Sequence record: NZ_CP049261.1
Length of the DNA: 64,000 nucleotides
Source of the DNA: a plasmid
Strand: one strand, 5' to 3'
Positions 20,451 to 46,160 of this stretch are shown here, piece by piece. Numbering within the stretch: position 1 is the stretch's first letter; each line of letters starts with the position of its first letter. The notes below the pieces were generated by a model. The model did no database searches. It saw only the letters and a program-made list of their open reading frames with translations, and had not been told where the DNA came from. The position numbers and the translations under genes were made by a program.

Positions 20451-20840
20451 ATGACAGCTCCAGAACTGACGTTTTATGTGGATGATGAAGGAATTTCCGT
20501 TGACCTGGTGTTGTCGGCGTTTGGCGAAAACCCTGTCCAGTGCATAAATCTGGATGCTGATACAGTCGATAAAAAATACCAGGCCGATATTCAATTTCTT
20601 ATTAAGAATCAAAATGCTTTTTTTGAGAAAATCACTGATGAAGCCAGGGAATACTGCCAGCGAGTGTATGGTTGCGCTGCAAAAAATCTTCTCCTGATAA
20701 AAATTTATCTTTCTCCTGAGACGGAAAAAAGCGTTGGATTTATGTTTTCTGTCGATGTGGATCCCGAACACGGATTGGGATTAAAATTCAATGGGTTGCA
20801 GTTGATAAAAACAGGTAGTAGCGAAACGGCATTTTTATAG
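20451..20840 (+). CDS. Hypothetical acidic protein (129 aa) in AT-rich patch, immunity-protein-like
   Basis: AAGAGAAAAG RBS. Codon usage coherent with the neighbouring SUKH gene. The antisense ORF 20379-20771 is rejected. Confidence 0.4.
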   Translation: MTAPELTFYVDDEGISVDLVLSAFGENPVQCINLDADTVDKKYQADIQFLIKNQNAFFEKITDEAREYCQRVYGCAAKNLLLIKIYLSPETEKSVGFMFSVDVDPEHGLGLKFNGLQLIKTGSSETAFL

Positions 20841-20942
20841 TGTTTTAAAGCAATCTGGCGTGAACTTATCTTTAGCTGTCAAGATAAAATCTCTCCTGGT
20901 AGATTGAAAGAGCCAGTCAACATAACTCAGAGAAGGAAAAGT

Positions 20943-21464
20943 ATGCCGGTTTCCTGTGGAAAAATGATTACAGAAGCGGATATCCAGCGCCTGGAAAAAA
21001 CATACTGCATCAGCTTGCCTGAAGATTATAAAACGTTCCTTCTGTTAAATAATGGCTTTGTGGTTAAAAGCCCGGATTATTGTAATTTAGCGTATGGCGG
21101 TGTCGATGAGGGCGCTATTGCGTTTAATGCCCTGTTTGGGTTGGGGACTGAAAATGAATACTGTGATATTGAGTATAATAATGAAGAACTATTCAGTGAA
21201 CTGGATTTTATCGACAGCAAATTAATCATCGGCGACGATCCGGGTGGTAACTATTATTTGATGCTGAATGGAGAACGCCAGCAGGGCATATTTTACTGGG
21301 ACAGAACGCATCTGCATGCTGAAGATATCCTTCAACAGTTTGAGATACCTGAGCAAAATGAGTGCGGCAACCTTTACAGGTTAAGCGATACATTTACGCA
21401 ATTCTATCAAAGCGTTATCGACAATACGCTTGCTCAGGGAATGCAGGTAACGCGTGATCTGTGA
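20943..21464 (+). CDS. SMI1/KNR4 (SUKH-1) family protein, orphan polymorphic-toxin immunity protein
   Basis: ..LPEDYKTFLLLNNGFVV...IIGDDPGGNYYLMLNGERQQGIFYWDRTH.. is typical of SUKH-1. AAGGAAAAG RBS before ATG 20943. Confidence 0.65.
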   Translation: MPVSCGKMITEADIQRLEKTYCISLPEDYKTFLLLNNGFVVKSPDYCNLAYGGVDEGAIAFNALFGLGTENEYCDIEYNNEELFSELDFIDSKLIIGDDPGGNYYLMLNGERQQGIFYWDRTHLHAEDILQQFEIPEQNECGNLYRLSDTFTQFYQSVIDNTLAQGMQVTRDL

Positions 21465-21581
21465 TAGCCATTGCTGACCCCGCTTCGCCATTTTCCGCGC
21501 CAGCGCGCAGCCAGAAATGATACTATCTTACTCATAACGCCCTGTCCCGGCAGGCATAAACACCACCATCAGGAACGCCCT

Positions 21582-21965
21582 ATGAGTAATGATATTCCTA
21601 TCAAGTTTTACGACATCGCTGACGAGTACGCGACGGAAACAGAGTTGCCGGTAAGCGATGCGGAGCGCGACCGCCTGGCGCACTACTTCCAGTTGTTAAT
21701 CACCCGTCTGATGAACAACGAAGAAATCAGCGAAGAAGCGCAGCATGAGATGGCGCGCGAAGCGGGGATCCCTGAAGGGCGTATCGATGAAATCGCCAAC
21801 TTCCTGAATCAGTGGGCAATGAGTAACGCCTCTGCGCTACACAGCCTTTGCGAAAAAAAACGGCCCCTTTACGGGGCCGTTTTTACATTACCGTTTCTGA
21901 TTACACAAAGTGGATGTGCTTCTTGCCATGATGGGGTGAAACCTCAATGCGCGCCTCCACCTTGA
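21582..21965 (+). CDS. Conserved hypothetical protein. The reading frame runs through a hairpin terminator and 65 nt into the convergent ABC ATPase gene.
   Basis: [51 protein letters not shown]... A probable undetected indel near the 3' end. Confidence 0.4.
21855..21890. terminator. Bidirectional rho-independent terminator
   Basis: aaaaaaaacggcccctttacggggccgttttt. Confidence 0.65.
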
Positions 21966-22659
21966 ATACCTCGCGCAGCATCGCCTCCGTCAGCACCTCA
22001 TCCGGCGTGCCGCTCGCCACCACCTGCCCGCCCTGCATCACAATCAGCGCATCGCAAAACATCGCGGCGTGGTTGAGATCGTGCAGCGCCACAATGCTCG
22101 TCACCGGCAGCTCGCTGATGAGGCGCATCAGGTGCATCTGATGATGAATATCGAGATGGTTGGTCGGTTCATCCAGCAAAATCTCGCCGGGCGACTGCGC
22201 CAGCGCGCGGGCGATATGCACGCGCTGCCGCTCGCCGCCGGAAAGATGCTGCCACCCGTCGTCACGACGGTCGAACATATCCACGCGCTCCAGCGCCTGA
22301 CGCACGATCTCGTCATCCTGGTGCGTCCAGGACGAGAGCGGCGAATGGTGCGGAATGCGCCCAAGCTTCACCACGTCGCGCACGCGAATGTTGGCATCGG
22401 TCATCGCGTGTTGTTCAACGAACGCCACGCGCTGCGCCAGCTTTTTCCTGGACAACCGCGCGATGTCGCCATCGTCCAGCAGCACCCGGCCCGCATCCGG
22501 GCGACGAAGCCCGGCGAGAATGCGCAGCAGCGATGATTTCCCGGAGCCGTTCGGCCCGAGCAGGCCAAGCGTTTGTCCGGTTGGCACGCTCAGCGACACG
22601 TTATTCACGATACGCTTTTTACCCGCCGACCAGCTGAGGTTTTCCGCGCGGATGCTCAT
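21901..22659 (-). CDS. Iron-complex (siderophore/haem/B12-type) ABC transporter, ATP-binding protein
   Basis: Walker [21 protein letters not shown] signature. Walker B ILLDEP. FepC/FecE/HmuV-like. 252 aa. Confidence 0.8.
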
Positions 22660-23695: not shown

Positions 23696-24710
23696 CAGTT
23701 CAGCCCGAGCTTCTCAAGCTGCGCCGCCACCTGCTCCGCGCCGTAGAGCGTGCGGATGGTCGGATTCATCGCCTGGCCATCCATCACCACGATATGCCCT
23801 TTTTCACGGCGTCGAGCTGGCTGACCGCCGGATCGGTTTTCAGGAACTGGATTTTGGCGTCGGCGTTATCCAGCGCCCAGCGGTTGCGGTCAAGGCTTGA
23901 AACGACGATCACATCCGGGTTGGTGGCGATGATGCTCTCCCAGCTGAGCGTCGGCCACTCGCTTTCTGACGTGACGGCATTGTGGCCGCCGAGCAGATGC
24001 GCGATGTAACCCGAAGCGCCGTTTTTGCCGCCGACGTAGGCGTCAGAGGAAGGCGACGCGCTGGAGAACCAGAAGAGATACGACAGGTTTTTATGATTTT
24101 TGCCGAATTTTTCTTTCAGGGCCGCTTCGCGCGCTTTGAAATCTTTGGTGAGCGCCTCACCGCGCGCTTCGACGTTGAAAATCTTCGCCAGATCGTCGAT
24201 TTCTTTATAGAGGTACGTCATATCCCACAGCTGGCTGCGGCTGCCGTAGATATCGCCGGTGTTTTTCTTCGTAACGCAGACACCAGGTGAGAGATAGCTG
24301 TTGATACCCACCGCCGCGAAATCTTCACGCTTCGCCACTTTACTGTCCGGGCCTAACAGCAGCGGGATCTGCGCGGCGACAAAATCGGGGTTCTGCGCGA
24401 GGATTGACTCAAGCGTCGGGATTTCAACCGTCAGCAGTTTGACCTTTTCATTTTGCTTCGCGAGCTGCGGCAACACTTTTGTCGGCCAGAAGGCGCTGGC
24501 GGCCATTTTGTCTTCAAGGCCCAGCAGCAGCATGATTTCGGCGGTGTTCTGCCCGAGCGCCACCATGCGCTCCGGCGCTTTTGTAAAGGTGACTTTCATG
24601 CCGCAGTTATCAAGGGTCAGCGGGTATTGTGTGGCAAGAACAGGTTCCGAAGCGGCGCAGAGCAGGCAGAGCGCCAGCGCGTGTTTTACTAAAGCATTCA
24701 TCAACATCAA
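23695..24710 (-). CDS. Iron-complex ABC transporter periplasmic binding protein (cluster A/TroA-like). C-terminal frameshift near 23800.
   Basis: Signal peptide. The ORF stops prematurely at ..AVKKGISW. The -1 frame continues ..GHIVVMDGQAMNPTIRTLYGAEQVAAQLEKLGLN to a TGA at 23695-23697. Confidence 0.65.
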
Positions 24711-24940
24711 CCTTAACGTGTTTTATCGCCGCGTGCCGCACGGGAATGGTTACGGGCCGGACAAATTAGAATTTGTATTATGCAAATGAAAATCATTCTT
24801 AAGAGGAGGTCTTATACCGGGGCGCCTGCGGGAAGTCAATATCGTCTCGTTGACGGTTTTCGGCAGGCGAAAGTTGCCAGAGACGGCGCAAATATGTTTT
24901 AAGAGAGCCCTCACTTTTTCTGAACAGTTATGCGGTTTTC

Positions 24941-26174
24941 ATGTCCACTCATGCACCCCATGCCGCAAGGCATACTTCTCCTTATCTGCTCTCCGCCAGC
25001 CAGCTGGTATTTAACATCGGTTTTTACGCGGTGGTGCCGTTCCTGGCGATTTATCTGCGCGATGACATGCTGCTCTCCGGTGGCTTATCGGCACTATCAT
25101 CGGGCTGCGCACGTTTTCACAACAGGGCATGTTTCTGCTGGGCGGCGCGCTTTCCGACCGCTACGGCGCGCGCGCCATTATCCTGTGCGGCTGTGTGGTG
25201 CGAATTACGGGCTATCTGCTGCTGGCGCTGGGCGGCTCGCTGTGGGCGGTGGTACTCGGCGCGTGTCTGACGGGCGTTGGCGGCGCGCTGTTTTCGCCGT
25301 CGATTGAATCGCTGCTGGCGCAGGCCGGCACGCGCAGCGAAGCGGAAGGCAAGCGCAGCCGCGCCGAGTGGTTCGCGCTCTTTGCCGTCTGTGGCGAACT
25401 GGGCGCGGTGCTCGGCCCGGTCCTTGGCTCGCTGATGGCCGGGTTTGGTTTTAAAACGATGGCGCTCGCGGGTGCGGGCGTATTTATTGTCGCGCTGGTG
25501 GCGCTGTTTATACTGCTGCCGCGCACGCCGCATCGCGACGGCCCGCTGCAGATTGTTCCCTGGTGGCAGACCTTTCATCAGCCGCGCTTTGTCGCGTTTA
25601 TCCTCGCCTACAGCGCGTATCTTTACAGCTATAACCAGCTCTATCTGGCGCTGCCGGTGGAGCTGCGCCGCTCCGGCAGCAGCGATGCCGCGCTCGGGCC
25701 GCTCTTTATTCTCGCCTCGCTGTTGATTATCACGTTGCAACTGCCGCTCGCGCGGATCTCGCGCCGTTTCGGGCGGCGCGTATGTTACCGCTCGGTTTCG
25801 GGCTGCTGGCGGCCTCGTTTGTCAGCGTGGCGCTGTTTGCCCCGCTCCCGCCTTTCGCGGGCTGGCTGCGGCTGTTGCCTGCAGCATGTATGGTGACGCT
25901 CCTGACGCTGGGTCAGATGATTATCGTTCCGGTGGGGATGGATCTGGTTCCGCGTTTCGCCGCGGGCCGTAATCTCGGCGCGCACTACGGCGCGCTGGCC
26001 TCGATGGGCGGCGTGGCGGTGCTGGCCGGTAATTTTCTGCTGGGCGACGCGCTGGATAACGCGCTGACGCCCGGCCCGCAGGCGGCGGTGCCGTGGCTGC
26101 TGCTGGCGGTCTTTCCGTTGTGCAGCGCGCTGGCGATGGCCGTGCTGTGTCGCTTCTACGCACCGAAGGGCTAA
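24941..26174 (+). CDS. MFS transporter interrupted by two frameshifts (about 25085 and 25780)
   Basis: The three consecutive ORF pieces 24941-25270, 25129-25896 and 25782-26174 together give a 12-TM MFS protein. Confidence 0.6.
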
Positions 26175-27468
26175 GGGGCAGTCGGGAGAAGGAATATTAC
26201 CCGATGAGTGACATTGTCACGTTTTAAACGGTTCCGTGGGCTGTTCACCCGCTATGGCGGCGGGGAAACCACACAACGGCTGGCTTCTTTGAATGCTATG
26301 TGTGCACTACGGTTACGCGTTAGCGGAACAGGTCAAACGGTAACTTATCTTTAACAAAATTAATCTATCGCTGCACACGCCAGTGTGCAGCGTCGGCTGC
26401 CTGAAGAGAACGTTCAGGTGCAAATTATCAGGCCAGTTATCATCCACAAGGCGCGCCGGGATCCCAGGACGTGACCGTTGGGAGTGACGGATCGCAGCGC
26501 ATAAACACACACCATGCCAGGCGTTGATACCTGCCGTCTCCCTTTACTTTTTATGAATGGTTAAAAACAGCAGAATAATATTAGAAACGCTTAAGAATTT
26601 TCTTGGTTTCTGAAACCGGTCTCATCATAAAATCCTCACATGTCTTTATTTTTGTGTTTTTTCATCAGGCTTACCTTTAGTGATACTTTCCTTACAATAT
26701 CTCCATACTTTTTTAAATAAGATGGCAAGATATAACCTTTTCAATAAGTTCTAAAACTGTGTTTTAAATAAAAGGAATAATGGGTGAGGTAATAAAAGCC
26801 GTACGCTATTTCACCACGGTGATTAAAGAAGATACAGATAAGTGGGTGAAAAAAGGAGATTTAATGAGAGATCGGAAGCGTCATCGGCCCTGATAACGCT
26901 TCCGGGAGAGTGTTTAACGGCGCTTGCCGCCGCGTGAAGGCAGCGTACGCGATTTCACCAGAACAGTATGCTTATAAAAAGCATAGCCGATGATGACAAC
27001 CAAAAAGACGATCAATGCTATGGTCATTTTGACGATAACCTTCCTGATGGTGCGACTATTTTAATAATGACGGTATATCATACATGAATCTATATTACAG
27101 ATGCATCTTTATTATTTTCAGGGCTGTTTAGTCTGCGTTTAATAATATTCTGTGGCGCAATCCATTATCAATAGCACGTTAAACCGGCGCAGGTTTTATC
27201 CCGAGGTTATTTGTTATGCACGTCCATGTTGGTGAAAAAAACGCCCGCTGATTTACGCTACCATAACCCCTGTATTCGGTTGTCATAGCAAAAACGGATG
27301 ATCCGCTGTTTCCGCCCTTTCTGTTCTCCTCCACATACCACCTCTGCAGATTGCTACTTATTAAAATGTACCTTTGAAAAAGTAGCTTTACCGAAAAGCA
27401 CGCTTAAGGGGATAATCCTGCTACTTTTTACGAGGCGCAACATCGCGGCTGCGTGCGTTTACGAGGGG
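26175..27468. other. ORF-free, strongly AT-rich left border of the integrase island (probable attachment-site region, H-NS-type DNA)
   Basis: No ORF over 65 aa and none with an RBS. GC drops to about 35-40% between 26520 and 27300. Confidence 0.4.
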
Positions 27469-28445
27469 ATGATGACGGAACTGCCTGACGACAATCTGCT
27501 GCCTGGCGCTTTTTCAGGTCTCGATCCCCATGCGCTGTCAGTGGGTGACGAGGCGCTGCCCCTCAACCCGGCGATGGCATATCTTTTAAGCCTGCCTTCC
27601 GCCGCGAGCCGCCAGACCATGCGATCCTTCCTGCATATCGTCGCAGGCATGCTCGGTGCTCGCGCGTTGCAGCACTGCCCCTGGGGCAGCCTGCGCCGCC
27701 ATCATGTGCAAGGACTGCTGGAGATGCTTTCGGCTTCCGGGCGCGCACCTGCCACCATCAATACCTATCTGTCTGCCCTGAAAGGCACCGCCCGCGAGGC
27801 GTGGATGATGAAGCTGATGGACACCGACAGCTATCAGCAAATCCTTGCCGTGCGGGCGGTACGCGGCAGTCGTCTCACCCGCGGGCGTGCATTAACTCCG
27901 GAAGAAGTGCGCGCGCTGTTTTCGCTCTGCGAGCAGGACAAAAGCTGTAAAGGCCCGCGCGACGCGGCGATGCTGGCGGTAATGCTGGGCTGCGGACTGC
28001 GCCGTTCGGAAGTGGTCGGGCTGGATTATGCGAGCATTCTTGAGCAGGACCAGGCGCTGCGCGTGCTCGGCAAAGGAAACAAAGAGCGGCTGGCATTTAT
28101 GCCGGACACCGTCTGGCAGCGGCTCCGGCACTGGACTGACAGCGTACGCGGCGAATACCCCGGCCCGCTCTTCACCCGCATCCGCGCGGGTGACGATGTC
28201 ACGTCTGAGCGCCTGACCCACAGGCGGTGTATCATATTCTGAACGAACGCCGTATGCAGTGCGGCATTGATAACTGCGCACCGCACGATCTTCGCCGCAC
28301 GTTCGCTTCCATGATGCTCGATAACGGCGAAGATCTGATAACGGTACGCGACGCAATGGGCCATGCCAGCGTCACGACAACACAAAAATATGACCGCCGT
28401 GGCGATGCCCGCCTGCGCCGCGCGGCAGGCAAAATTAAGCTTTAA
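27469..28445 (+). CDS. int: Tyrosine site-specific recombinase (phage integrase family). Frameshift at the CCC run near 28216.
   Basis: GAGGGG RBS. Core-binding and catalytic domains. The C-terminal ..HDLRRTFASMMLDNGEDLITVRDAMGHASVTTTQKYDRR.. carries the R..H-x-x-R...Y catalytic residues in the second frame. Confidence 0.7.
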
Positions 28446-28538
28446 AAAGCGGTTAACGGCCCATTGCGTGGCCCGGCAAAATGTTACGCTCACCATCATC
28501 GTTCAACACTTTCTCAACTTCCAAAACCAGGGACAGGT

Positions 28539-29760
28539 ATGGTTTCAACACTGACATGGATTGACCACGACAGCCGCGCGCGTGAACGCACACTTCGCAT
28601 CCTCGCACAGTTTCAGGAAAAAGAGAGCCGGGATGAACTCGGCATCGGCACGGTGCGTGATAGCCTCGCGGACTTACTTTTTCCCGGTACCAGCACCATC
28701 CAGACACGGCTGCGTTACATGCTCTTCGTTCCCTGGATTTACCGGGCGCTGGAAGACAAAAAAGTGACTGCCGCGCAGTTTGCCGGCGCGGCGGATAAGC
28801 ACGAAAGAGAACTGGTCAGACGGCTCCAGACGGCCGATGACCATCACGGGATGTTCGGTAAAAATGCCGGTGGAGATATTAAACGTCTGCCCAGCTCCGT
28901 TTACTGGGCTGGTCTTGGTGCCTGGCACATTCGGCTTACACCTTTTTCTCAGGGCCAGTATCACCAGCGGATCGATGAGACCTATCGCCAGAAGCGCCGC
29001 ATTGCACGCCAGCAGCGTCACGCCCGCGATCGCGCGGATGATCCGATACCGAACCCGACAACGTGCATAACTGGCATCCGCGATTACCGGCGACGCCTGC
29101 TGACTTTCCTGAAAAGGTGACGTTCCTGCTCACTCGCGATGAGGCTGAGTTCATCCGCGACCGTCTCCAGGCGGCATGTCCGCATAGCCTGCTGGCCTTT
29201 CTGGCCTTACAGGACGATAAGCCGACAGGCGCGTATCCCTGGGAGTATGCCAATAGCGGTCGCTTTTCCGCGACACATCAGACGATCCTTCACCATGCAC
29301 GCCTTTTCTCGGAAGTCATGCATGGCGCGGCGCTCTCCTATAACTACCAGCTTGCCGAAAAGATCGAGCGTGAGGGCTGCGTGAACTGCATGAAGAGAAT
29401 TTCCAGGAATGGCGCAATGCTCTGCCGCTTGCGGAGATTGCACGCTGGAACATAAACGAGTTGTGGGCGCTTACTCACCGGGAAGGCCATCAGATAGCTC
29501 CGCAGACACGCCATTTTATCGAATCCTGGGTGCGGTATCTTCGCACGACGCCAGACGCGCTTCTGAAGGGCGATGCCAGCGCGCTGATTCAGTATCGTGA
29601 ACAAAAATTAAAAGGACCGCGCTCGCGGTTCACTAACAAGCGCGCGCAGGAGCAATGGCGCGGTCACTCGGGTACGAGACGGATCAATTATCGCTGGAAT
29701 ACCGTTAAAACGTTGCTCGCTGATTTGCACCAGGGGCTGTGTCAGGAGGCGGTATGCTGA
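28539..29760 (+). CDS. Unknown-function protein, first gene of the candidate three-gene defence operon. Two frameshifts (about 29060-29120 and 29400-29460).
   Basis: Three consecutive frames, 28464-29120, 29063-29455 and 29461-29760, form a protein of about 405 aa. MVSTLTWIDHDSRARERTLRILAQFQEKESRDELGIGTVRDSLADLLFPGTSTIQTRLRYMLFVPWIY... No domain recognised from memory. Confidence 0.45.
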
Positions 29761-31563
29761 GCCCGGATGCAAGAAGCCTCTATACCGCCGCGCTGACGCC
29801 ACCGCCGGGTATGCGTTTTGATGAAGCGCTGGCCACGACATTTTCACTGGATCCTACCTGTCTGCTCGAAGCGCCGGTGCATCTTGCACTGATGTCCATG
29901 GAAAACCAGGCGGAACAGGACGGCCTTGCCATGCTTGAATCCCTGCGACGTTATGCCGGACGCATGACGGTCTATGTTCAGCGCGGACGCATTCAGTTGC
30001 CTGCCATAGTGCGACCCAATCCGTTATTTAGTCTGCTTGAGCCGATGATTGTCGAAGTGAGCGCGCCCAACGGCGGTGTGTTTCACCCCAAAATCTGGGT
30101 GTTGCGTTTTGTCGCTCCGGTCAGGACACGGTGATGTACCGCCTGTTGGTGCTGACCCGCAATATAACGACCGATCGCTCGTGGGATCTTTCGCTGCAGC
30201 TTGAAGGCGTCATGGGGCGCAAAAAAAGGCCGGTGAATAAGCCGCTGGCTTATCTGCTGCGCCTGCTGCCGGGTCTCGCGAGCAGAGGCATTGCAGATGA
30301 GAAAACGATGCAGGCGCAGCGAATTGCTGATGAGCTTTATCGCGTTGAATGGGAGTTACCGGCAGGTTTTCAGGAGATGGCGTTTTATCTGCCGGGTATT
30401 AAGGCATTTAACTGGATCCCGCCTGCCTCACTGCGCATGGCTGTCATTTCACCGTTTTGTTCCGATGAGGCGCTGAACGCGCTGGTACAAACGACACAGC
30501 GTGCCGAGGCGTTGATTTCCCGACCGGAGGCGCTGGCAGCGTTAAAACCCGCCACGCGGGAGGCGTTCACGCAGTGCTCTCATTTAGACGATGCTGCGGA
30601 AACCGACGATGGTGAAGACACAGACGCTGTCGATATGGCGGCATCGCTCGCGACGGGCCTGCACGCCAAAGCGTATCTTTTTGAAACCCAATATTATTCT
30701 TTATATACGCACCTCGTAATGGGCTCTGCCAACGCGACTAATGCCGCGCTAAAAGCTGCCAGAAATATTGAGCTGCTGGTCGAGCTAAAGGGTCGTCAGC
30801 GCGATATCGGCGGCATCGATACGTTGCTTGACAAAGAGGGATGGGCGAATACCTGGTGGATTTTCAGGCAGATGAGTTACCGCCGGTGGATGCAAGCGCC
30901 CAGGCTGCCGCGCAGGCGCTGGAACACGCCAGAGCACAACTGGCCGCGTTGCCGCTGTCGCTTACCTGCGATCCGGTGGACGATGAGCAATGGCGGCTCA
31001 CGCTGGAGGGCGTTTTGCCGAAGTTTAAAGGTGTTGCGACGCTCAAGGCGTGGCCGGTCACGCTCATTGGCGAACATGCGGTTTTATTGCCGACAGAAGG
31101 CGCTGACGGCCCTTTCCCCTCGGGCAGTTTTCGCTGCGGGCTGTCACCGGGCTGACGGCGTTTGAGCTCACTACCCGCGAGCCCGCATTGTGCGTCCGGT
31201 TTGTGCTTAATCTGCCCGTGACGGGCATGCCTTCAGAGCGCAACGCGGCTATTCTGCAAAGCGTTATCAGCAACCCTGACGGCTTTCTGCGTTATCTGCT
31301 GTTATTGCTGGATCAGGATGACCCGCACTGCCGCTACAGGAAAAGTACAGAGTCGCTGCCGGGTGGCTGGCCCGTCTTGCCGATGGCGAGGATTTTCCTC
31401 TGCTGGAAATGCTGACACGCGCCGCCAGCCGCACGCCAGAACGTTTAAAAGAAATCGCGTCGCTTATCGGTGAGCTGCGCCAGGGAAACCGGAACGCGGT
31501 GATCCCGGAGGATTTTCTGGCGCTCTGGACGGTATTTGAAGCCGCCATGGAGGACGCGAATGT
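29754..31563 (+). CDS. Phospholipase-D-family nuclease with two HKD motifs. Several frameshifts.
   Basis: AGGAGG RBS. ATGCTGA overlap with the upstream stop. First HKD is GGVFHPKIWVLRF. Second is GLHAKAYLFE...HLVMGSANATNAAL. The C-terminal pieces at 30841-31155, 31188-31415 and the final frame end at TGA 31561-31563. Confidence 0.6.
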
Positions 31564-34500
31564 CTGATAATCGATTTTCTGCGCAGGCAGCGCTGGCCAC
31601 GCTGAAAGATTTTCAGCGTGATACGGTCGATTATGTGTTTGAGCGGCTGTTTGGCGAAAACAACACCACACGGTTTCTTGTCGCCGATGAAGTCGGGCTT
31701 GGCAAAACATTGATTGCACGGGGCGTTATCGCCAGAACGCTGGAACATCTGCAGGATAAAAAAGATCGCGTCGATATCATCTATATCTGCTCCAGCGCGG
31801 CGATTGCTGGTCAGAATCAAAAAAGGCTCAATCTCAGCGGCTCTGAAGGGTTCTCGCTCTCTACCCGGCTGACCTATCTGCCACGGCAGGTCAGCGAGCT
31901 GCGCAATAATAAAGTTAACTTTATCAGCCTGACGTCAGGCACAACCTTCGACCATACCGTAAGTCGTGAAGGCCATGCGGGAGAGCGCGCCATTTTGTAC
32001 CGGATTTTGTACGACCTCCCGCTGGGCCAGGGCGAGCGACGCACCCGGCTGCGTACAGGGCTGTTAAATCTTCTACAGGCGCGAATGGGAAAAGCGAGCT
32101 GGCGCGCCACCGCGCAGGGGCTGCGGGCTGATGAACTGGATAATGACCTCTGCAGGATGTTCCGACGCGAAGTGCTCGACGATAAACCGCTTTACGCGCA
32201 GCTTAAGCAGGGTTGCGAGCAGTTTATACGTTACCGTGACAGCAGCCGGATCCCGCCAGACGATACGCAGTTACGGCTTCGGCTTATCATGGCGCTGCGT
32301 CAGAAACTGGCTTTCGTTTGTCTGAAGGCCCTGAAGTCCGACCTGGTGATCCTCGATGAGTTTCAGCGGTTTAAGCATCTACTGGACGCTGAAGACGATA
32401 CCGCGCGGCTCGCCACGGCCCTGTTTGAACAGAAGGAGGCGCGTGTTCTGCTGCTTTCCGCCACGCCTTATAAAATGTTCACGCTGGATAACGAAACCGG
32501 GGAAGACGATCATTACCCGGATTTTATCCGCACACTGTCATTTCTGATGCGCGATCCGGCGCAGGTCAACCACGTCAGCGCGCTGCTTTCCGCTCACCGG
32601 GCCGCACTGCATGCCGGTATGCCTGAAGGTGAAAAAGCACGTCTTCAGGATGCGCTTTTGCGTGTGATGTGCCGCACCGAAAGGATTTCTGATACCCGCG
32701 ACCGTAACGCCATGCTCGTTGAAGTTCCCCGCATAGCGCCGCTGCAGGCCACGGATATCCGGCATATTCGTGCCGTTGATGCGGTTGCGGCCTGTGTGGA
32801 CGCAGGCGATCTGGTGGAGTACTGGAAATCGACGCCCCATTTGCTCAACTTTCTGAAGCGCTATGCGCTGCGTAATAAACTTGATGCGGCTATCGATGCG
32901 CCGTCACCTGCGCTCTCTGCGGCGCTGAGAGCGGCCCGCGATGAGTGGCTGACGCCCGGTCAGCTGGATGATTACCAGCCGCTTGAACCCGGCAACGCGC
33001 GGATGCGGCTTCTTTTTGAAGACACCATCGATAACGGGCTCTGGCAACTGTTATGGATGCCGCCATCGCTCCCGTATTACACACCAGGCGGCGTCTGGCA
33101 GGGGAAAACCCATCTGACCAAGACGCTTATCTTCTCCTGCTGGAATGCGGTGCCGGATGCTATCGCCACGCTCTGCTCTTATGAGGCAGAGCGCCGGATG
33201 GTCAGCGGCGCGTCGGTTACGCATCGCGAGCTTTATCAGAAAATCAAACCGCTGTTGCGGTTTGCGAAAGCCAGCGCGGACGACCGTCTGACCGGTATGC
33301 CAGTCATGGCATGGCTGATGCCCTCACCGGTCCTGGCGACGGCGATTGATCCACTCACGATGGCCTGTGCCGGGGATAACGGCCCGCTCCCGCTGGAAAC
33401 CGTGCTGGAAGCCGCCCGTGACATCTGCGAGACGCTTGTCGCCGCTTTACCCTCCAGCCCGGCGGAGGGCAAAGCCGATCCGCGCTGGTACTGGGCTGCG
33501 CCGGTGCTGCTCGATGCGCAGGGCGGGCTACTGGCGTGGTGTAAAGACCCACAAGGCTGGCGGGCGCTGGTGACGCCTGATGCGGATGACGACTCCCACT
33601 TCACCGCGCATCTGGAACAGCTGACAGACGCCGCCGAGGGACGCCTTACGCTCGGGCCGAAGCCAGACGATCTGGCGGACGTGCTCGCACTGTTCGCGCT
33701 TGGCGGGCCTGGTACCTGCGCATTGCGTGCGTTACAGAGGGTAGATCCGCAGACGGCGGGCGACAGCATGACCCTTCTCACCGGTGCGGCGACCATCGCC
33801 TCGGGGTTCAGAACCCTGTTCAACATGCCGGAGACCATTGCGATGCTGCGTGGCGCAAGTGAGGAGACCTACTGGCGTTTAACGCTGAAATATGGCGTTG
33901 AGGGCAATCTGCAATCCATGCTGGATGAATATGTCCATACGCTACGGGAATCGCCCGGCGTGCAGGGATCTGGCGTCGCGGCACAGGTGGCCACTCTGTC
34001 CGCGCATATCCAGTCTGTTCTATCGTTGCGTGTCTCCCGGCTGCATCTGGACGCGCTGGAGGCTAACGATGCGGGCTTTGAGCGTGTAGAGTTTTCGACC
34101 CGCTGCCGCTTTGCGCTGCGGTTTGGTGATATCCGGGATGACAATAACGACGCGCTGGTACGGGCAGAAAGCGTTCGCGATGCTTTCAATTCGCCGTTTC
34201 GCCCGTTTGTGCTGGCCTCCACGTCCATTGGCCAGGAAGGGCTCGATTTTCATACGTGGTGCCATGCGGTGATGCACTGGAATCTTCCCGCAAATCCTGT
34301 CGATTTAGAGCAGCGCGAGGGCCGGGTGCATCGTTACAAAGGGCATGCGGTGCGGAAAAATATCGCGCATGCTTATGGCATTGCGAGCCTTAAGGGCCAC
34401 AACGCGGGCGACCCGTGGCAAACCCTTTTTGCGCGGGCAGCGCAGGACAGAGCGCCTGGGCAGTCCGAACTTATCCCTTACTGGATCTTTGAGAACGGCC

Positions 34501-34721
34501 CGGCGCGCGTGGAGCGCCGTATTCCCGTGCTGCCTTACAGCCGGGAAACCGGCAAGCTCAAACGACTGAAGCAGGGGCTCGCGTTGTATCGCCTGGCGTT
34601 CGGACAGCCGAGACAGGAGGACTTACTCTCAAGTCTCAGCCATAACGCCCCGATCTCTGAAGATGCCCTTGCCGGAGGGCTGATATCACTTAAGCCGCCC
34701 GGCCGGTCCGGTAAAGCGTAA
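31560..34721 (+). CDS. SNF2/SF2-family helicase-related ATPase (1054 aa from ATG 31560), intact
   Basis: ATGTCTGA overlap with the PLD gene. GGAGG RBS. Motif I is LVADEVGLGKTLIA. Motif II is VILDEFQRFK. Motif III is LLLSATPYKM. Motifs V and VI are LASTSIGQEGLDFH and QREGRVHRYKGH. Confidence 0.8.
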   Translation: MSDNRFSAQAALATLKDFQRDTVDYVFERLFGENNTTRFLVADEVGLGKTLIARGVIARTLEHLQDKKDRVDIIYICSSAAIAGQNQKRLNLSGSEGFSLSTRLTYLPRQVSELRNNKVNFISLTSGTTFDHTVSREGHAGERAILYRILYDLPLGQGERRTRLRTGLLNLLQARMGKASWRATAQGLRADELDNDLCRMFRREVLDDKPLYAQLKQGCEQFIRYRDSSRIPPDDTQLRLRLIMALRQKLAFVCLKALKSDLVILDEFQRFKHLLDAEDDTARLATALFEQKEARVLLLSATPYKMFTLDNETGEDDHYPDFIRTLSFLMRDPAQVNHVSALLSAHRAALHAGMPEGEKARLQDALLRVMCRTERISDTRDRNAMLVEVPRIAPLQATDIRHIRAVDAVAACVDAGDLVEYWKSTPHLLNFLKRYALRNKLDAAIDAPSPALSAALRAARDEWLTPGQLDDYQPLEPGNARMRLLFEDTIDNGLWQLLWMPPSLPYYTPGGVWQGKTHLTKTLIFSCWNAVPDAIATLCSYEAERRMVSGASVTHRELYQKIKPLLRFAKASADDRLTGMPVMAWLMPSPVLATAIDPLTMACAGDNGPLPLETVLEAARDICETLVAALPSSPAEGKADPRWYWAAPVLLDAQGGLLAWCKDPQGWRALVTPDADDDSHFTAHLEQLTDAAEGRLTLGPKPDDLADVLALFALGGPGTCALRALQRVDPQTAGDSMTLLTGAATIASGFRTLFNMPETIAMLRGASEETYWRLTLKYGVEGNLQSMLDEYVHTLRESPGVQGSGVAAQVATLSAHIQSVLSLRVSRLHLDALEANDAGFERVEFSTRCRFALRFGDIRDDNNDALVRAESVRDAFNSPFRPFVLASTSIGQEGLDFHTWCHAVMHWNLPANPVDLEQREGRVHRYKGHAVRKNIAHAYGIASLKGHNAGDPWQTLFARAAQDRAPGQSELIPYWIFENGPARVERRIPVLPYSRETGKLKRLKQGLALYRLAFGQPRQEDLLSSLSHNAPISEDALAGGLISLKPPGRSGKA

Positions 34722-34727
34722 CGCCGG

Positions 34728-35402
34728 TTACGGTGCAATCTCCTGCCCGCGATAATCGATAAACCGGCACTGCAGATTATCCAGCGCGGCGTTGATGACG
34801 TTTTTCAGTCCAGCCGCGCTCTCGTCTACCGTCACCGGCGCACGTTCGCCGCCCATATCGGTCTGGACCCAGCCGGGATGCAGCAACAGCACGCTGCGTT
34901 TACCCGGCAGCGCCGATGTCACCGCGAATGAGCGCGCCAGCGAATTCAGCGCGCTCTTACTGGCGCGGTAGAGCGCCATGTCGCCGGTATCGTTATTTGT
35001 AAAGCTTGCGGTACTGGAGGACATAAACGCGATGACACCGCCTTCACGGACCTGCGAGAGCATCGTCTCCGCGAGTCGCACCGGTGCGATAGCGTTGGTC
35101 AGAAAGAGTGAGGCGATCTCCTGTTCGGTGGCCTGCGATACGCTCTGATGATCGGGGCCAAAAATACCGGCGTTGACGATGAGCGCGTCAAAGGTCACAG
35201 CGCTGAGGTGTTCTTTGAGGTGGACTACGCTTGCCGTGTCGGTCATATCGACGATTTGCGTGGTGATACGCGGATGGGTGTCTTTGTGCGTTGCGTCACG
35301 CACCGTCGCTATCACGTCGGCGCCCTCCTGCGCGAAAGCATTCGCCAGACCACGGCCAATCCCGCGCGATGCGCCGATAATCAGGATATGTTGTACAGTC
35401 AT
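34728..35402 (-). CDS. Short-chain dehydrogenase/reductase (SDR) family oxidoreductase
   Basis: ILIIGASRGIGRGLANAF cofactor motif. YRASK active site. 224 aa. Confidence 0.75.
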   Translation of the reverse strand: MTVQHILIIGASRGIGRGLANAFAQEGADVIATVRDATHKDTHPRITTQIVDMTDTASVVHLKEHLSAVTFDALIVNAGIFGPDHQSVSQATEQEIASLFLTNAIAPVRLAETMLSQVREGGVIAFMSSSTASFTNNDTGDMALYRASKSALNSLARSFAVTSALPGKRSVLLLHPGWVQTDMGGERAPVTVDESAAGLKNVINAALDNLQCRFIDYRGQEIAP

Positions 35403-35448
35403 GATTTTTTAACCTGCAATAATAATGAACCCATACTGATGGGCTTAA

Positions 35449-36018
35449 TCACTCCGCAAGGCGGTAGACCCCTGCTCCCCAGTAGCCTTTTTCCGGTTTA
35501 CGGATTTCACGCCAGCCCTGACGAACAAGGCTGCGGGCAATCAAACGATTCATGATGCCATGCCCCATCAAAAGCACCGGACTTTGCGCGTTACCGGCAA
35601 GCGCAGCGAGATTTTGCGCAGCCATTGCCGCGCGTGCTTTTGCGGCATGCAGCGTTTCAGCATTGCCCGATAACCCGCACAGCCATAACATGCGGAAAAT
35701 GCCACTCCAGGCCAGCGGCGACAAACGCAGCCTGCCAATACTGTGCACCGGCAGTTCTGCCTCCCGGTATAGCGCATCGGTTTGCACTGGATCACACCCC
35801 ATTGTTTTTAGAGAAGAGAGGGCACGAGGTAAATCGCTGCTGATAACAATGCCCGCTCTGGCTGCTAACGCGCGGCTTGCCTCAGGCGGTAAGTCATTCC
35901 CCGTACCGGCCTCGTTATAACGGCTTATCCAGCCTGGCATATCGCGGGAGCCGATCGCGCCTGAATGCGCTATATCAGGGCTGCCGTGACGCATCAGAAT
36001 AATTTCCATATCTTCCAT
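35449..36018 (-). CDS. Histidine phosphatase family protein (phosphoglycerate-mutase-like)
   Basis: IILMRHG catalytic motif at the N-terminus. 189 aa. Confidence 0.65.
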   Translation of the reverse strand: MEDMEIILMRHGSPDIAHSGAIGSRDMPGWISRYNEAGTGNDLPPEASRALAARAGIVISSDLPRALSSLKTMGCDPVQTDALYREAELPVHSIGRLRLSPLAWSGIFRMLWLCGLSGNAETLHAAKARAAMAAQNLAALAGNAQSPVLLMGHGIMNRLIARSLVRQGWREIRKPEKGYWGAGVYRLAE

Positions 36019-36030
36019 TCCACGGGTGGT

Positions 36031-36300
36031 TTACCTGGCGTGAAAAAAATATCCCACCAGCGCCAGTACCACCACAATAACGCCTGAGAAAATCGCTCCG
36101 CTGGCCCATGCGAAGGGAGCGATCTCTTCTTCTTTTTTGATATCCGCGTAACGCTTTAGTGCCTGCTCTGCCAGGGGCGCGTCAATCTCTTCGAACTGCT
36201 TTTCATAGCCTTTGGCTTTAAGCCGCGAGGCTTTTTCGGTATCGGCTTTATCGAACGCAAACAGCTGAGTGCCTTTCTTATAGAAGACAAATGTGGTCAT
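36031..36300 (-). CDS. Small hypothetical protein with C-terminal TM anchor (89 aa)
   Basis: AGGAG RBS. MTTFVFYKKGTQLFAFDKADTEKASRLKAKGYEKQFEE.... Confidence 0.45.
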   Translation of the reverse strand: MTTFVFYKKGTQLFAFDKADTEKASRLKAKGYEKQFEEIDAPLAEQALKRYADIKKEEEIAPFAWASGAIFSGVIVVVLALVGYFFHAR

Positions 36301-36583
36301 GGTGGACTCCTGTCGTGGTGACGCGCTATGCCTAACATACCGGAGCGGAATACATTTTGTACATGAATACCTTAAAGCGCTTTTAGCAGAAAAGCAGACC
36401 GTCGCTGATACATACAACCATGAATAAGTGTCCATCAGCCGGAATGGAAAAACAGAGGAAGTGGTGGCGGGGAATTATTCGCAGGGCGGTCGGGCATACA
36501 GGGAATGATCGGTAATCCGCCTGTAAAAACGCCCGGTACAGGTACCGGGCGTGGCATAAAAAATAACGTTTTTTATCTGCTAA

Positions 36584-38241
36584 TCAGAAGCTCTGCCAGT
36601 CGTTATCTGATACCGCGGCGGCGGCGGGCACCGGGCGCAGCGTTTTGATTGGCGTCACCGGCGCGGCGACATGACGCGCCGCGCTTTTCGCATGACTGGC
36701 GGCGGCGATGGTAAATGCACCAACCAGCTGGTTCAGGGATGCGGCCTGCTCCATCAGCGACTGCGACGCCGCCGAAGCCTGCTCGACCAGCGCGGCGTTC
36801 TGCTGGGTTACATCGTCCATCTGGTTGACGGCCAGATGCACCTGATTGATGCCCTGCGCCTGCTCCTGCGCGGCGACCGAAATCTCATCAACAATATCCG
36901 TTACCTGACGCACCGCCTCGGTCATTTTGCCGATATTCTGGCCGACGCCTTCCGCCTGCGCGGAACCGGTTTCGACGTATTGCATTGAGTTCTCAATCAG
37001 TTCTTTGATTTCCCGCGCGGAGGAGGACGAACGCTGCGCCAGCGTGCGCACTTCACCGGCCACCACGGCAAACCCTCTGCCCTGCTCGCCCGCACGCGCG
37101 GCTTCTACCGCAGCGTTGAGCGCCAGGATGTTGGTCTGGAAGGCAATCCCTCGATCATCGCGATAATGTCGGTGATTTTCGAGGAACTGTCGCGAATACT
37201 GCTCATGGTCGTCAGCATGGTATTGACGCGCGACTGGCTGTCTTCCGAAATATCACGCGCGTTTTTCGCAAGCTGGCTTGCAAGCTGGGTATTTTCCGCA
37301 GTCTGACGCACGGTTTCGCTCAGCTCTGACATGCTGGCGGCAGTCTGCTCCAGCGAAGCGGCCTGTTCTTCTGTGCGCGACGAGAGATCTTCGTTACCGG
37401 CGGAGATCTGCCCGGAGGCCGAGCTGACCGACTGCGCGGACGCTTCGACAGCGGCGAGTGATGAAGCCACATTGGCTGCCAGCGTATTGTACGCTTTGGC
37501 CGTCTGGCCTATCTCATCCTTACGGGAATCGTCAGCGCGCAGTGTCAGATCAAGATGCTCGCTCGCCGTTTCCAGCGTCTGGCGCATGCTGTTGAGCTGG
37601 TTGCGAATCGAGAAGATGGTCTTCAGCGTGAAAAAGCCGAGAATAAGGATGACCACTGCCGAGCCGCCAATCAGCGTCCAGAGCGTCTGGTAATAGGAGC
37701 TATCATTTTCCTTACGCAGCGTTTTGCCGACGTCAATGTTGACCCCCAGCTGTTTCTGGTACAGCGCGATCAACTGACGCGCGGCACCGCCGACACCGTT
37801 GTCATCACGCAGTGCGGCGAGCGCGAGAGCGTTGTTGTGTGCACGCGAGCTCTCTAAAAATGCCGGTAACCGGGACTGAACCGTCTGAATCAGCGTACCG
37901 GCGCTTTCAGAAATCTGCCGGTCTTCCTCGCTGGAGATTTCATTTTGCAGGTAAAACTGGTTCTGCGTGGTGATGCGGTTAATGACCGTATCAATCTCTT
38001 TTTCAATCTCGGCCTGACCTGATGCGTCAGCGGTATTCTGGTGGCGGTAGAGCCAGATAATTAATGTATTACTACCATCAATCATTTTGCCGATATCAAG
38101 CACCGACGGAAGCGTGTTTTCCTGGACGTACTGGAACCTTGCCTGAAAATTGCTGACGACCACTACCGATGTGATCACCATAGCGATCAGCGCGGCAGAA
38201 AGTAATGAAAACGTCAGCATAAGACGTTGTGTAATGGACAT
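36584..38241 (-). CDS. Methyl-accepting chemotaxis protein (4-helix-bundle sensor). Frameshift about 37100-37150.
   Basis: N-terminal piece 37105-38241 has TM1, a periplasmic 4HB domain, TM2 and HAMP. C-terminal piece 36584-37066 has the signalling domain and a C-terminal ..NDWQSF pentapeptide-like tail. Confidence 0.75.
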
Positions 38242-38534
38242 GGAGTGTTTCCTCGGTGATGCTTATTTTTGCTGTATGGAGCCAGTGCTTAAATCAAACC
38301 GGCACAACGAATATCGGCAGCCAGGCATGCAATAATTAGCCTCCGGCAGACGCTTTCTCGTATGCCCATGATTAACAAAACATTAAATTTTTTAAAGTAA
38401 TGACCTGGGAATGGTGTGGGAATTTGTTGCGGTGCTTTTTTAGGCTCGCCACGGCGCTTTGCTCTAAGGTTTATGTCAGTAAGCGAAAGCCTGTGCGCCG
38501 TTGCACTGGCGTCGCCACACCTCAGGAGGCCTTT

Positions 38535-39333
38535 GTGATCACACTGTGTAACGCCTGCGGCACGTCATATCAGGTTGACAATGCCCGGCCACAGCGCTGC
38601 AAAATTTGTGACGATGAGCGGCAGTTTGTTCCGGTAACGGGGCAGCAATGGGTGGACCATGATGCGCTGCTGGCGACCCATTCCAATAAATGGAAGCAGC
38701 ATACCCCGGATCTTTTCAGCATCCGGACGGTGCCGGATTTTGCGATTGGCCAGCGTGCGTTTCTGCTGCGTACCCCGCAGGGAAATATTCTCTGGACTGC
38801 GTCGCCACCCTGGATGACGCCACAAAAACCCTGATTGCCGCGCTGGGCGGTCTGATGGCCATTGCCATTTCGCATCCGCACTTTTACACCACCATGCAGG
38901 ACTGGGCGGCCGCCTTTAACGCGCCGGTGTATCTGCATGCCAGCGACCGCGAATGGATAATGCGCGACAGCCCGTTTATCCGCCTCTGGGAGGGAGATGA
39001 ACTGACGCTGGCTGAGGATATCCGCGTGATTCGCCTCGGCGGCCATTTTGCCGGTGGCTGCGTACTGCATGACGCGCGCGGCGACGGCCTGCTGCTGAGC
39101 GGTGATATTTTGCAGGTGACGCCGGGGCGAAGAGCGTCTCATTTATGTGGAGTTATCCGAATATGCTGCCGCTACCGGCCGCCACCGTCAGCGCGATGAC
39201 AGACCGGCTGCGCGGCGTGTCATTTTCGACGCTATGGGGCGCGTTTGAAGGCCGTGAAATCACTGCCGACGCCAGCGAGCGGGTGCGCCGTTCGGGGGAA
39301 AAATATGTGGCGTGTCTGAATCGCGCGGATTAA
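38535..39333 (+). CDS. MBL-fold metallo-hydrolase. Two frameshifts (about 38800 and 39130).
   Basis: AGGAGG RBS before GTG 38535. ..AISHPHFYTTMQDWAAAF.. is HxHxDH-like. Three frames are needed: 38400-38834, 38690-39199 and 39145-39333. Confidence 0.55.
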
Positions 39334-39353
39334 CGCTTTTTATTTCGTGACGC

Positions 39354-40676
39354 TCAGGCCCGTTCATACGCGACCCGACCATCAACATAGGTGCGGTATA
39401 TCGCGCGATCGTCACCCAGCGTCATCATCACGAAAAGCTTATCAAACAGGGTCGCGGAATTGTCATAGCGGAGCTGCTGCAGCGGCGTTGAGGTCGGCTC
39501 CAGCACCACAAAATCGGCCTCTTTGCCGGGCATAAAGTTACCAATAAGATGATCAAGCCCCAGCGCTTTCGCGCCGCCGAGCGTGGCAAGATAGAACGCC
39601 TCGTCAGCGGATAACGGATAGCCCTGCAACTGCCCGACTTTGTATGCCTCGTTCAGCGTTTGCAGCATGTTGAACGTGGTTCCCGCGCCGATGTCCGTTC
39701 CCATTCCGACTTTCACTTTTTTCTGCCACGCTTTTGGCAGATTAAACAAACCGCTGCCGAGATAGAGATTAGATGTGGGGCAGAAAGCGATGCTGGAGCC
39801 CGTGTCTCGCAGGCGATCCCACTCGCGCTCTTCAAGATGAACACAGTGCGCGAAGATGCAGTTGTGCCCGGTCAGGCCATAGTGATGATACACATCCAGA
39901 TAGTCGTCACGCTCCGGATACAGCGTTTTCACCCACTCGATTTCAGCCTGATGTTCAGACAAATGCGTCTGGAACCAGGTATCCGGATATTCTTCGCGCA
40001 GGCGCTGCGCCATCGCCAGTTGTTCCGGTGTCGACGTCGGGGCAAAACGCGGCGTGATGGCATACAGCAGCCGCCCTTTTTTATGCCAGCGTTCAATCAG
40101 CGCCTTGCTCTGTTCATAACTGCTTTGCGCATCATCCAGTAGCCAGTCGGGCGCGTTGCGATCCATCATGACTTTACTGGCGATAAGACGCATATTGATT
40201 TGGCTGGCTTCCTCGAACAGCGCGTCCACTGACTGCGGATGCACTGAGCCAAAAACCAGCGCCGTTGTGGTGCCGTTTCGTAATAACTGCTTAATAAAAA
40301 AAGCGGACATTTCGCGCGCGTATTCCCGATCTTCATAGCGTCGCTCGGCAGGGAACGTATATTTATTGAGCCAGTCGAGGAGCTGTTCGCCATACGCGCC
40401 GACCATTTCACTCTGTGGGTAATGAATATGCGTATCGATAAAGCCCGGCACCACCAGTTTTCCGCGGTAATCACGCACGCGGACCGTATCCGGAACCTGT
40501 TGTTTTCCTTTTTCCCACTCACCGAACCATTCAATTTTCCCGTGACGAATCAGCAGTAAGCCGTCTTCCATAAACCGCAGCGCCGGTGCTATCTCCTGAG
40601 GCGTTTCAGCGGTCCTGGTGAAATCAATAAAACTGCCGCGTACGGCTTTTAAGGTCTGTTCTGCTGACATCATCAC
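39354..40676 (-). CDS. guaD: Guanine deaminase
   Basis: 440 aa, near-collinear with E. coli GuaD/YgfP (..VPGFIDTHIHYPQSEMVGAYGEQLL...GMGTDIGAGTTF..). Confidence 0.9.
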   Translation of the reverse strand: MMMSAEQTLKAVRGSFIDFTRTAETPQEIAPALRFMEDGLLLIRHGKIEWFGEWEKGKQQVPDTVRVRDYRGKLVVPGFIDTHIHYPQSEMVGAYGEQLLDWLNKYTFPAERRYEDREYAREMSAFFIKQLLRNGTTTALVFGSVHPQSVDALFEEASQINMRLIASKVMMDRNAPDWLLDDAQSSYEQSKALIERWHKKGRLLYAITPRFAPTSTPEQLAMAQRLREEYPDTWFQTHLSEHQAEIEWVKTLYPERDDYLDVYHHYGLTGHNCIFAHCVHLEEREWDRLRDTGSSIAFCPTSNLYLGSGLFNLPKAWQKKVKVGMGTDIGAGTTFNMLQTLNEAYKVGQLQGYPLSADEAFYLATLGGAKALGLDHLIGNFMPGKEADFVVLEPTSTPLQQLRYDNSATLFDKLFVMMTLGDDRAIYRTYVDGRVAYERA

Positions 40677-40837
40677 CTCCTGCAGTCTGTCTTTTTTCTT
40701 CTGTGACTCTCTGTTGATGGGTTTTAATGCACTTTTCGTAGTATAGGATTTTCTCTCTGAGGGGCATTGCGATGGCGCACGTCATGTCCGGCGCACAGGC
40801 TGAAACGGCGTGCCTTTACCCTGCTAAGCCAAAAACC

Positions 40838-44495: not shown

Positions 44496-44819
44496 ATTTA
44501 CTCACTATCGGCAACTATCCAGGAAGCCTTATGCGTACAGGCCATTAAATTTTCTTAACGCAAACGGGTCGGAATAAGCGAAACGGGGAAACGTATTACG
44601 ATCAACGAGAAGGGAAACAGACTGGATTCAGAAAAAAAGCGGGCCGCCTGACATCGCAGCGGCCCGTAAACAGAATATTGGCTAAGGTGCCCCTTTTCCT
44701 GATGATGCTATCGTAGCGCCATAACCTTAAGGGAAACTTAAGGCATAAGTTAAATCTTAAATATTTACAAAGCGCGCGTTCCGCAGGCAATAAAACGATG
44801 GGCATCCGCGCCCGCACGA

Positions 44820-46089: not shown

Positions 46090-46122
46090 ACCTGCCATGC
46101 GTACACAGAAAAAACCCTGCCG
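46090..46122 (-). terminator. Rho-independent terminator of the HAAAP transporter gene
   Basis: Minus strand reads aaccctgctccggcagggtttttt. Confidence 0.55.
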
Positions 46123-46160
46123 GAGCAGGGTTTGTTGCGCAATAAGATGCAAATCGCGTA

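Follow-up and report, generated by a model that had tools for sequence, protein, structure and literature searches.

Azaca is known from the literature as an anti-phage system that combines a helicase, a phospholipase D (PLD)-family nuclease and a DUF6361 protein, and it is credited to Millman et al. 2022. Azaca was found to give >10^6-fold protection against T4, in work where phage plating also covered the Klebsiella homolog KpAzaca, and the purified Bacillus ZacABC proteins (BmAzaca) favored T4 genomic double-stranded DNA (dsDNA), with cleavage achieved only by the three-protein complex and lost in nuclease active-site mutants and in a ZacC Walker A mutant (bioRxiv 10.1101/2025.07.10.664194). 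Here we report that a 64,000-nucleotide stretch of the plasmid record NZ_CP049261.1 (referred to as the window) carries a complete Azaca operon, zacABC, at positions 28539-34721.

Other described systems resemble Azaca in part. SauUSI (7CLG), an ATP-dependent type IV restriction enzyme, and its fused PLD-helicase relatives (PADLOC mREase_IV and PLD_Helicase; NCBIfam phospholipD_antiphage) likewise have a PLD center and a superfamily 2 (SF2) ATPase and work without a cognate methylase. In SauUSI the N-terminal PLD nuclease, the SF2 helicase and the C-terminal target-recognition domain, a reader of modified bases, lie in one polypeptide, which has a single HKD motif per chain and dimerizes. DISARM, made up of the helicase DrmA, the DUF1998 protein DrmB and the PLD protein DrmC together with DrmD or DrmE and a methyltransferase, also has an SNF2-like helicase in DrmD, and Mokosh also joins a PLD nuclease (MkoB) to a superfamily 1 (SF1, RNA-type) helicase (MkoA), or has the two fused as MkoC. 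Finally, both Hachiman (HamAB) and Azaca are nuclease-helicase complexes in which the nuclease needs its helicase partner to cleave.

The zacABC operon and its assignment to Azaca

The window represents an IncFIB virulence plasmid of Cronobacter sakazakii that resembles pESA3 and pSP291-1. At least 12 complete C. sakazakii plasmids of the pESA3/pSP291-1 type share 98.5-98.8% identity with the operon region; in them the genes are intact and carry the RefSeq names "DUF6361 family protein", "phospholipase D family protein" and "helicase-related protein", and a megablast search of complete E. coli genomes with the same region returned no match. An open reading frame (ORF) listing was made for window positions 24000-40000. 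It contains seven shorter + strand ORFs with shifting frames from 28464 to 31415, followed by a single long uninterrupted ORF at 31536-34721 (+) whose supported start is the ATG at 31560. With the frames restored, the region resolves into three co-oriented + strand genes: zacA (28539-29760), encoding a DUF6361 protein of 407 aa after correction; zacB (29754-31567), encoding a PLD-family nuclease of 605 aa after correction; and zacC (31560-34721), encoding an SF2 helicase/ATPase of 1053 aa that is intact as read. Consecutive genes share stop/start overlaps, ATGCTGA at 29754-29760 for zacA/zacB and ATGTCTGA at 31560-31567 for zacB/zacC. As read in the window, zacA is spread over three frames and zacB over five, and restoring six single bases yields proteins that are 98.3% (ZacA), 98.8% (ZacB) and 99.2% (ZacC) identical to the annotated pSP291-1 proteins. 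An earlier note on this DNA, made from the letters alone, had proposed three co-oriented genes joined by these two overlaps and had suspected frameshifts in the first two, and we find the genes, the overlaps and the broken frames where it placed them.

The window fragments match the three Azaca profiles of PADLOC-DB in collinear order. ZacA profile positions 1-165, 169-272 and 302-394 are matched by the fragments 28464-29120, 29063-29455 and 29461-29760, ZacB profile positions 1-122, 127-350 and 469-514 by 29739-30134, 30131-31165 and 31188-31415, and ZacC profile positions 4-1016 of 1019 by 31536-34721, with 1186 bits. The first three fragments also belong to a single Pfam family, DUF6361 (PF19888), at consecutive profile positions, and ZacA scores 1.7e-66 with this model; among the later fragments, one has a weak PLD-like Pfam match. 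The corrected ZacA and ZacB match their PADLOC profiles over the full length, and the intact pSP291-1 proteins do so for ZacA (4e-141, positions 1-394 of 396), ZacB (7.9e-188, positions 1-583 of 586) and ZacC (E = 0, 1190-1191 bits, positions 4-1016 of 1019). The locus thus has the components by which Azaca is recognized, a DUF6361 protein of ~400 aa, an HxK PLD nuclease and an SF2 helicase of ~1000 aa, in adjacent co-oriented genes. Because all three proteins, including that of the first gene, match full length, we assign the trio to Azaca and conclude that the locus is a complete, type-example operon of a named system that is already known.

ZacB carries the HxK motif twice, as H111-P-K113 and as H304-A-K306, with G324-S-A-N327 after the latter, and the pattern H111-x-K113, H304-x-K306, G324-S-x-N327 was invariant in 70 of 70 ZacB homologs. 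The aspartate of a canonical HKD motif is absent at both sites, which hold R118 and E311 (mostly E across homologs), and we therefore describe the motif as a double HxK and not as a strict HKD. The earlier description of a double-HKD PLD nuclease of about 600 aa consequently holds for the two motifs and the length, but not for the aspartates. The Pfam PLDc_2 match of ZacB is below threshold (17 bits vs 27). When the ZacB family profile was compared with solved structures, the best match was SauUSI (7CLG), of which residues 115-160 align with the HxK...GSxN segment of ZacB over 46 residues (E 2e-4). ZacC has a Walker A motif, GLGKT (residues 46-50), and a motif II, DEFQ (residues 271-274), and matches Pfam DEAD, ResIII and Helicase_C. 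No Pfam SNF2 model matched ZacC, and its sole SNF2-type similarity is a weak match of the C-terminal lobe to DrmD and RapA, so that the helicase call of the earlier note stands but its SNF2-family label is loose. Additionally, the ZacC amino terminus weakly resembles fused PLD-helicase anti-phage proteins (PADLOC and NCBIfam profiles). In sequence searches of solved structures, a RapA motif match of 49 residues was all that ZacC returned, neither the ZacA profile nor the ZacB sequence on its own gave a meaningful match, and no Azaca structure was detected. An AlphaFold2 model of ZacA, built on a 23-sequence alignment, was all-helical with a mean predicted local distance difference test score of 72.5 and a poor N-terminal half, and a fold search with it matched no solved structure.

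Compared with Azaca as described, the operon shows the same three families in the same order, retains both the paired HxK motifs of the PLD nuclease and Walker A of the helicase and is free of a methyltransferase; its architecture is no different, and what is particular to it is the Cronobacter IncFIB virulence plasmid on which it lies and the Xer-like recombinase beside it. The likeness to SauUSI is at the level of the motif only, as the PADLOC mREase_IV match reaches 15 bits, which is far under the family cut-offs. Azaca differs from SauUSI in having two HxK motifs in one nuclease chain, a separate helicase and a required DUF6361 subunit. Membership in the SauUSI-type group of type IV enzymes was rejected because nuclease and helicase are made as two polypeptides and a reader domain was not recognized. 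Azaca may nevertheless work like the SauUSI family without being a member of it, and both likely act on modified DNA. The Azaca locus differs from DISARM in lacking DrmA, DrmB and a methyltransferase. We rejected DISARM since no DrmB, DrmC or methyltransferase profile matched in the operon, and a PADLOC scan that covered five of six genes annotated within 6 kb on the right of the operon gave no match. The ZacC C-terminal lobe scored 39-56 bits with the DrmD and DrmA models, where the DrmD match of 56 bits covers ~70 residues and compares with a cut-off of 610. More generally, the matches to DrmD, DpdE, BrxH and PDC-M27C span only ~50-90 residues of this lobe and lie far under the family cut-offs. 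Mokosh differs in its SF1 helicase and in having no DUF6361 partner, and it was rejected because none of the three proteins matched a Mokosh profile (PADLOC, E<=0.001-0.01). Hachiman differs in its DUF1837 nuclease, its dispensable ATPase motifs and its indiscriminate target; Azaca, by contrast, requires Walker A and favors T4 DNA.

The trio is conserved well beyond Cronobacter. ZacA homologs form at least 3401 protein clusters, all 120 of those listed are DUF6361 proteins, and identity is 54-60% even in Desulfobacterota, Kordiimonas and Geothermobacter; a genome scan found a ZacA relative in 424 species-representative genomes. We examined 80 ZacA loci, 63 of which extend at least 6.3 kb past the start of ZacA, and the order ZacA-ZacB-ZacC on one strand was kept in 62 of these 63, from Bacillota to Planctomycetota. 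The co-occurrence in other genomes that the earlier note proposed to examine is therefore present. The exception, a metagenome-assembled Spirochaetia genome (OZ253665.1, 10224-11765), matched ZacB only to residue 515 and gave no ZacC match; the locus there may be truncated or masked.

Two other identities were considered for these genes. The earlier note saw in them a candidate undescribed nuclease-helicase system, distinct from DISARM, Mokosh and Azaca, with a first gene of no recognized family, and it cited Azaca only as a look-alike. It was right that the operon has no methyltransferase, DrmA/DrmB or SF1 helicase, the weak DrmD/DrmA lobe matches aside, and its general picture of a three-gene, one-operon nuclease-helicase anti-phage module is borne out by the Azaca profiles; the lack of an NCBIfam model for either gene 1 or gene 2 and the generic RefSeq names also fit an undescribed system. 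Against this stand the very high-scoring full-length Azaca matches of all three proteins and the fit to the literature's definition of Azaca, and the first gene is ZacA, a member of Pfam DUF6361. Since the trio, with gene 1, falls in a named system, the proposal of novelty is refuted and we give it practically no chance. The second identity comes from the annotation of zacB. A paper on Cronobacter plasmids lists the segment as a recombinase, a protein termed hypothetical and a phospholipase D and discusses the latter as a virulence factor, with the defense function going unrecognized (PMC9169379), and no paper in the literature searched links Cronobacter with Azaca. The location on a pESA3-type virulence plasmid is in keeping with a lipolytic virulence factor, but the protein matches ZacB over its full length and has its translation coupled to that of a DUF6361 protein and of an SF2 helicase, the same operon is conserved in free-living bacteria of many phyla, and the nearest solved relative of the catalytic motif is a restriction endonuclease. 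A lipolytic role is thus hardly credible, and the "phospholipase D" of the Cronobacter plasmid is ZacB, the nuclease of an anti-phage system.

Frame breaks and proposed mechanism

Alignment to pSP291-1 showed that every frame break in zacA, zacB and the neighboring recombinase gene falls where a short homopolymer run has lost one base. In zacA, one lesion follows 29042, where CCC has become CC, and the other, at 29372/29373, shortens a run by one base; the four in zacB come after 30116, 30837, 31115 and 31321, each within a run of C or G. The window was then set against four independent assemblies whose ZacC is identical to its own, aligned over 25569-40718 (15.1 kb). It was found that the window differs from them by 3-6 substitutions and by the same 12 one-base homopolymer deletions, and within the operon by 0-1 substitutions and 6 deletions, while zacA and zacB were called at 407 and 605 aa in four of the four. 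The assembly collection indexes the window's exact ZacC in 655 blocks, and the four neighborhoods shown stand for all 24 contigs read, in which zacA and zacB are intact. Comparison of window positions 1-43186 with a complete sister plasmid gave ~36 further one-base deletions vs ~4 one-base insertions. These deletions break type VI secretion system (T6SS), iron-transporter, MFS, chemoreceptor and other genes, at sites such as 222, 837, 3337, 3391, 4198, 6680, 7893, 10124, 12864, 21813, 22724, 25770, 37147, 38793 and 39123, which lie in G, C, A or T runs; the stretches 15009-21812 and 31322-37146 are free of them. Because deletions outnumber substitutions, always fall in homopolymers and are spread over unrelated genes, the pattern points to undercalling and not to pseudogenization. 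Judged from these alignments, the six frameshifts in zacA and zacB are homopolymer undercalls of this assembly, and all three proteins are most likely made in the organism. With undercalls pervasive in the assembly, any other "pseudogene" in the window should be distrusted as an assembly error.

For the mechanism we draw on the Bacillus homolog and the conserved motifs; the family, the catalytic motifs, the operon conservation and the artefactual frameshifts come from the present comparisons. By analogy with BmAzaca, ZacA, ZacB and ZacC would join into one complex, in which the SF2 ATPase of ZacC would provide ATP-dependent DNA engagement or translocation. The two HxK half-sites of ZacB would fold into one PLD-type center that cuts dsDNA at loosely defined sites, and ZacA, the all-helical DUF6361 protein, would be the obligatory third subunit. 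The preferred substrate would be hypermodified phage DNA of the T4 type, bearing glucosyl-hydroxymethylcytosine, which the authors of the BmAzaca study suggest as a possible cue (bioRxiv 10.1101/2025.07.10.664194). The whole may then act as a split, multi-subunit, ATP-dependent and modification-dependent (type IV-like) restriction enzyme, and incoming T-even-like phage genomes would be destroyed with no need for a cognate methyltransferase. We favor such a split three-subunit enzyme because of the Bacillus biochemistry, the match of ZacB to SauUSI and the resemblance of ZacC to fused PLD-helicase proteins. Taken as a whole, an Azaca system on a pESA3/pSP291-1-type plasmid, with artefactual frameshifts and a modification-directed three-subunit restriction activity, is in our judgment highly probable.

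Two alternatives bear on whether the system is alive in this strain and on what it does. As read, zacA is broken over three frames and zacB over five, and only zacC is whole; accessory defense genes are often lost, and one sister plasmid is without the entire segment. The locus could on that account be a decaying remnant in which genuine zacA and zacB frameshifts leave ZacC as the sole possible product and the system dead, an outcome that the earlier note had named as one that would undo its proposal. Each of the six lesions, however, removes one base from a short run of C, G or A, this type recurs at the ~36 other sites in unrelated conserved plasmid genes, the ratio of deletions to substitutions is unlike natural decay, and zacA and zacB are intact in neighborhoods that carry the exact ZacC. 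Decay is thus very unlikely. The main mechanistic rival is that Azaca could act as Hachiman does, as a sensor of DNA damage or genome integrity that would degrade DNA indiscriminately and lead to abortive infection. The nuclease-helicase architecture common to both, a similar mechanism hypothesized in a survey preprint and the highly degenerate cut-site motif of Azaca (bioRxiv 10.1101/2025.07.10.664194) are consistent with such a sensor, but Azaca cleavage needs the helicase Walker A motif, unlike that of Hachiman, and the ZacB motif is nearest to the type IV enzyme SauUSI. We regard a sensor as improbable, if deserving of attention, and return to modification-directed restriction by an intact operon as the preferred explanation. 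Several observations weigh against that explanation. The 5.8 kb from 31322 to 37146, which include all of zacC, are free of deletions, and this is somewhat uneven for random error; the 91-bp leader of the operon gave no promoter-like site above chance in a promoter scan; and the Cronobacter operon is only ~45-60% identical to the other-phylum homologs compared. Modification dependence is moreover what the preprint suggests and not a demonstrated specificity, and mutation of conserved ZacA residues left complex formation and cleavage unaffected (bioRxiv 10.1101/2025.07.10.664194). ZacA is thus a poorly understood protein, in keeping with the earlier note, which could place gene 1 in no family.

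A presence/absence segment beside a recombinase gene

Azaca occupies a discrete segment of the plasmid. In comparison with the C. sakazakii plasmid pH322_2, homology ends at 28447, after the recombinase stop codon, and restarts at 34728, at the stop codon of an SDR-family oxidoreductase gene. The 6,280 bp between them (28448-34727, +) hold zacABC only, consisting of the 91-bp leader, the three genes and 6 bp past the zacC stop, and pH322_2 has 27 unrelated bases in their place. The SDR gene (34728-35402, − strand) is convergent with zacC and forms the right flank of the segment as part of the plasmid backbone; in pH322_2, which lacks Azaca, the recombinase is followed 29 bp on by the convergent SDR gene. 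On the left lies the gene for an Xer-like tyrosine recombinase of ~325 aa (27469-28445, +), which matches Pfam Phage_integrase and a SAM-like N-terminal domain and scores below the NCBIfam XerC/XerD cut-offs; it is split into two frames by the deletion after 28216. The recombinase is preceded by an AT-rich stretch of ~1 kb without an annotated gene (26511-27468), which lies outside Azaca. Recombinase gene and zacABC are arranged alike in C. turicensis pCTU1, at ~83% DNA identity, and the AT-rich stretch is conserved there too, upstream of the homologous recombinase gene. Promoter and terminator scans around the operon gave counts no better than in shuffled sequence.

The earlier note had described a tyrosine integrase and an AT-rich, gene-poor border just upstream of the operon, and both exist, but its further step to an integrative island does not follow, as the locus lies on a plasmid. 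An island is unsupported because the recombinase is kept where Azaca is absent, no flanking repeats were found and a similar recombinase lies near Azaca in only 1 of 80 other loci (tblastn, E<=1e-3). The ends of the segment at 28448 and 34727 share only short chance matches in place of attachment (att)-like repeats, where the search made for tRNA or att sites extended to repeats only. For these same reasons, a recombinase not tied to the cargo, no att-like repeats and the 1 in 80 loci, an integron-like cassette was rejected along with the island. The link between recombinase and Azaca may instead be local to this plasmid family. PADLOC gave no match in five neighboring genes (two AAA ATPases, a histidine phosphatase, the SDR gene and a small ORF), and the region is therefore not a defense island.

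We also considered that the slot between the recombinase and SDR genes could be an exchange site serviced by the recombinase, which in most plasmids of C. sakazakii and C. turicensis is taken up by Azaca and in H322 by the 27-bp filler, with the further possibility that ZacA could be a new reader or regulator for modified DNA. This is speculative and we think it quite unlikely. If the slot were such an exchange site, how susceptible Cronobacter lineages are to T4-like phages with hypermodified DNA would depend on whether they carry Azaca. Whether the 6.3-kb segment is present could matter for the control of C. sakazakii by phages in infant-formula settings.

Other features of the plasmid window

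Near the recombinase, the AT-rich stretch contains promoter-like hexamers at 27067-27096 (+) and 27171-27142 (−), and in pCTU1 a bgl operon (arbG/arbF/casB) lies to the left of the AT-rich stretch, between it and the MFS gene. The other cargo of the window comprises a T6SS cluster, an iron ABC transporter, an MFS transporter and chemoreceptors, as well as guaD, mgtA, an autotransporter, treYZ/glgX and hipBA. In the T6SS cluster, the window at 16121-16123 lacks ~6.7 kb relative to pCsaC79b (L004 16172-22918; the ImcF-related/tssF/tssG region), and larger T6SS truncations occur in other sister plasmids. Published T6SS variability on pESA3-type plasmids is consistent with the ~6.7-kb difference (PMC9169379). 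Three patches in or beside the cluster, at 9000-11000, 13000-16000 and 20000-22000, have a low GC content of 0.37-0.48 vs ~0.59 around them. The corresponding regions of a sister plasmid hold genes for a putative T6SS immunity lipoprotein, DUF2931, PAAR and hypothetical proteins, and the patches also cover small genes after dsbD. Their appearance is that of effector/immunity cargo gained by horizontal transfer.

Two adjacent "AAA family ATPase" genes lie at ~44800-47400 (L005 1637-4235, minus strand), between a chemoreceptor gene and mgtA, in a patch of lower GC content (0.47-0.50 at 44-46 kb). The pair, which had no PADLOC match, could be a small foreign insert. Finally, genes for a HipA-family toxin and a helix-turn-helix antitoxin (hipBA-type) are found at ~62000-63700 (L005 19052-20655, minus strand), and this pair is plausibly a plasmid-maintenance module.

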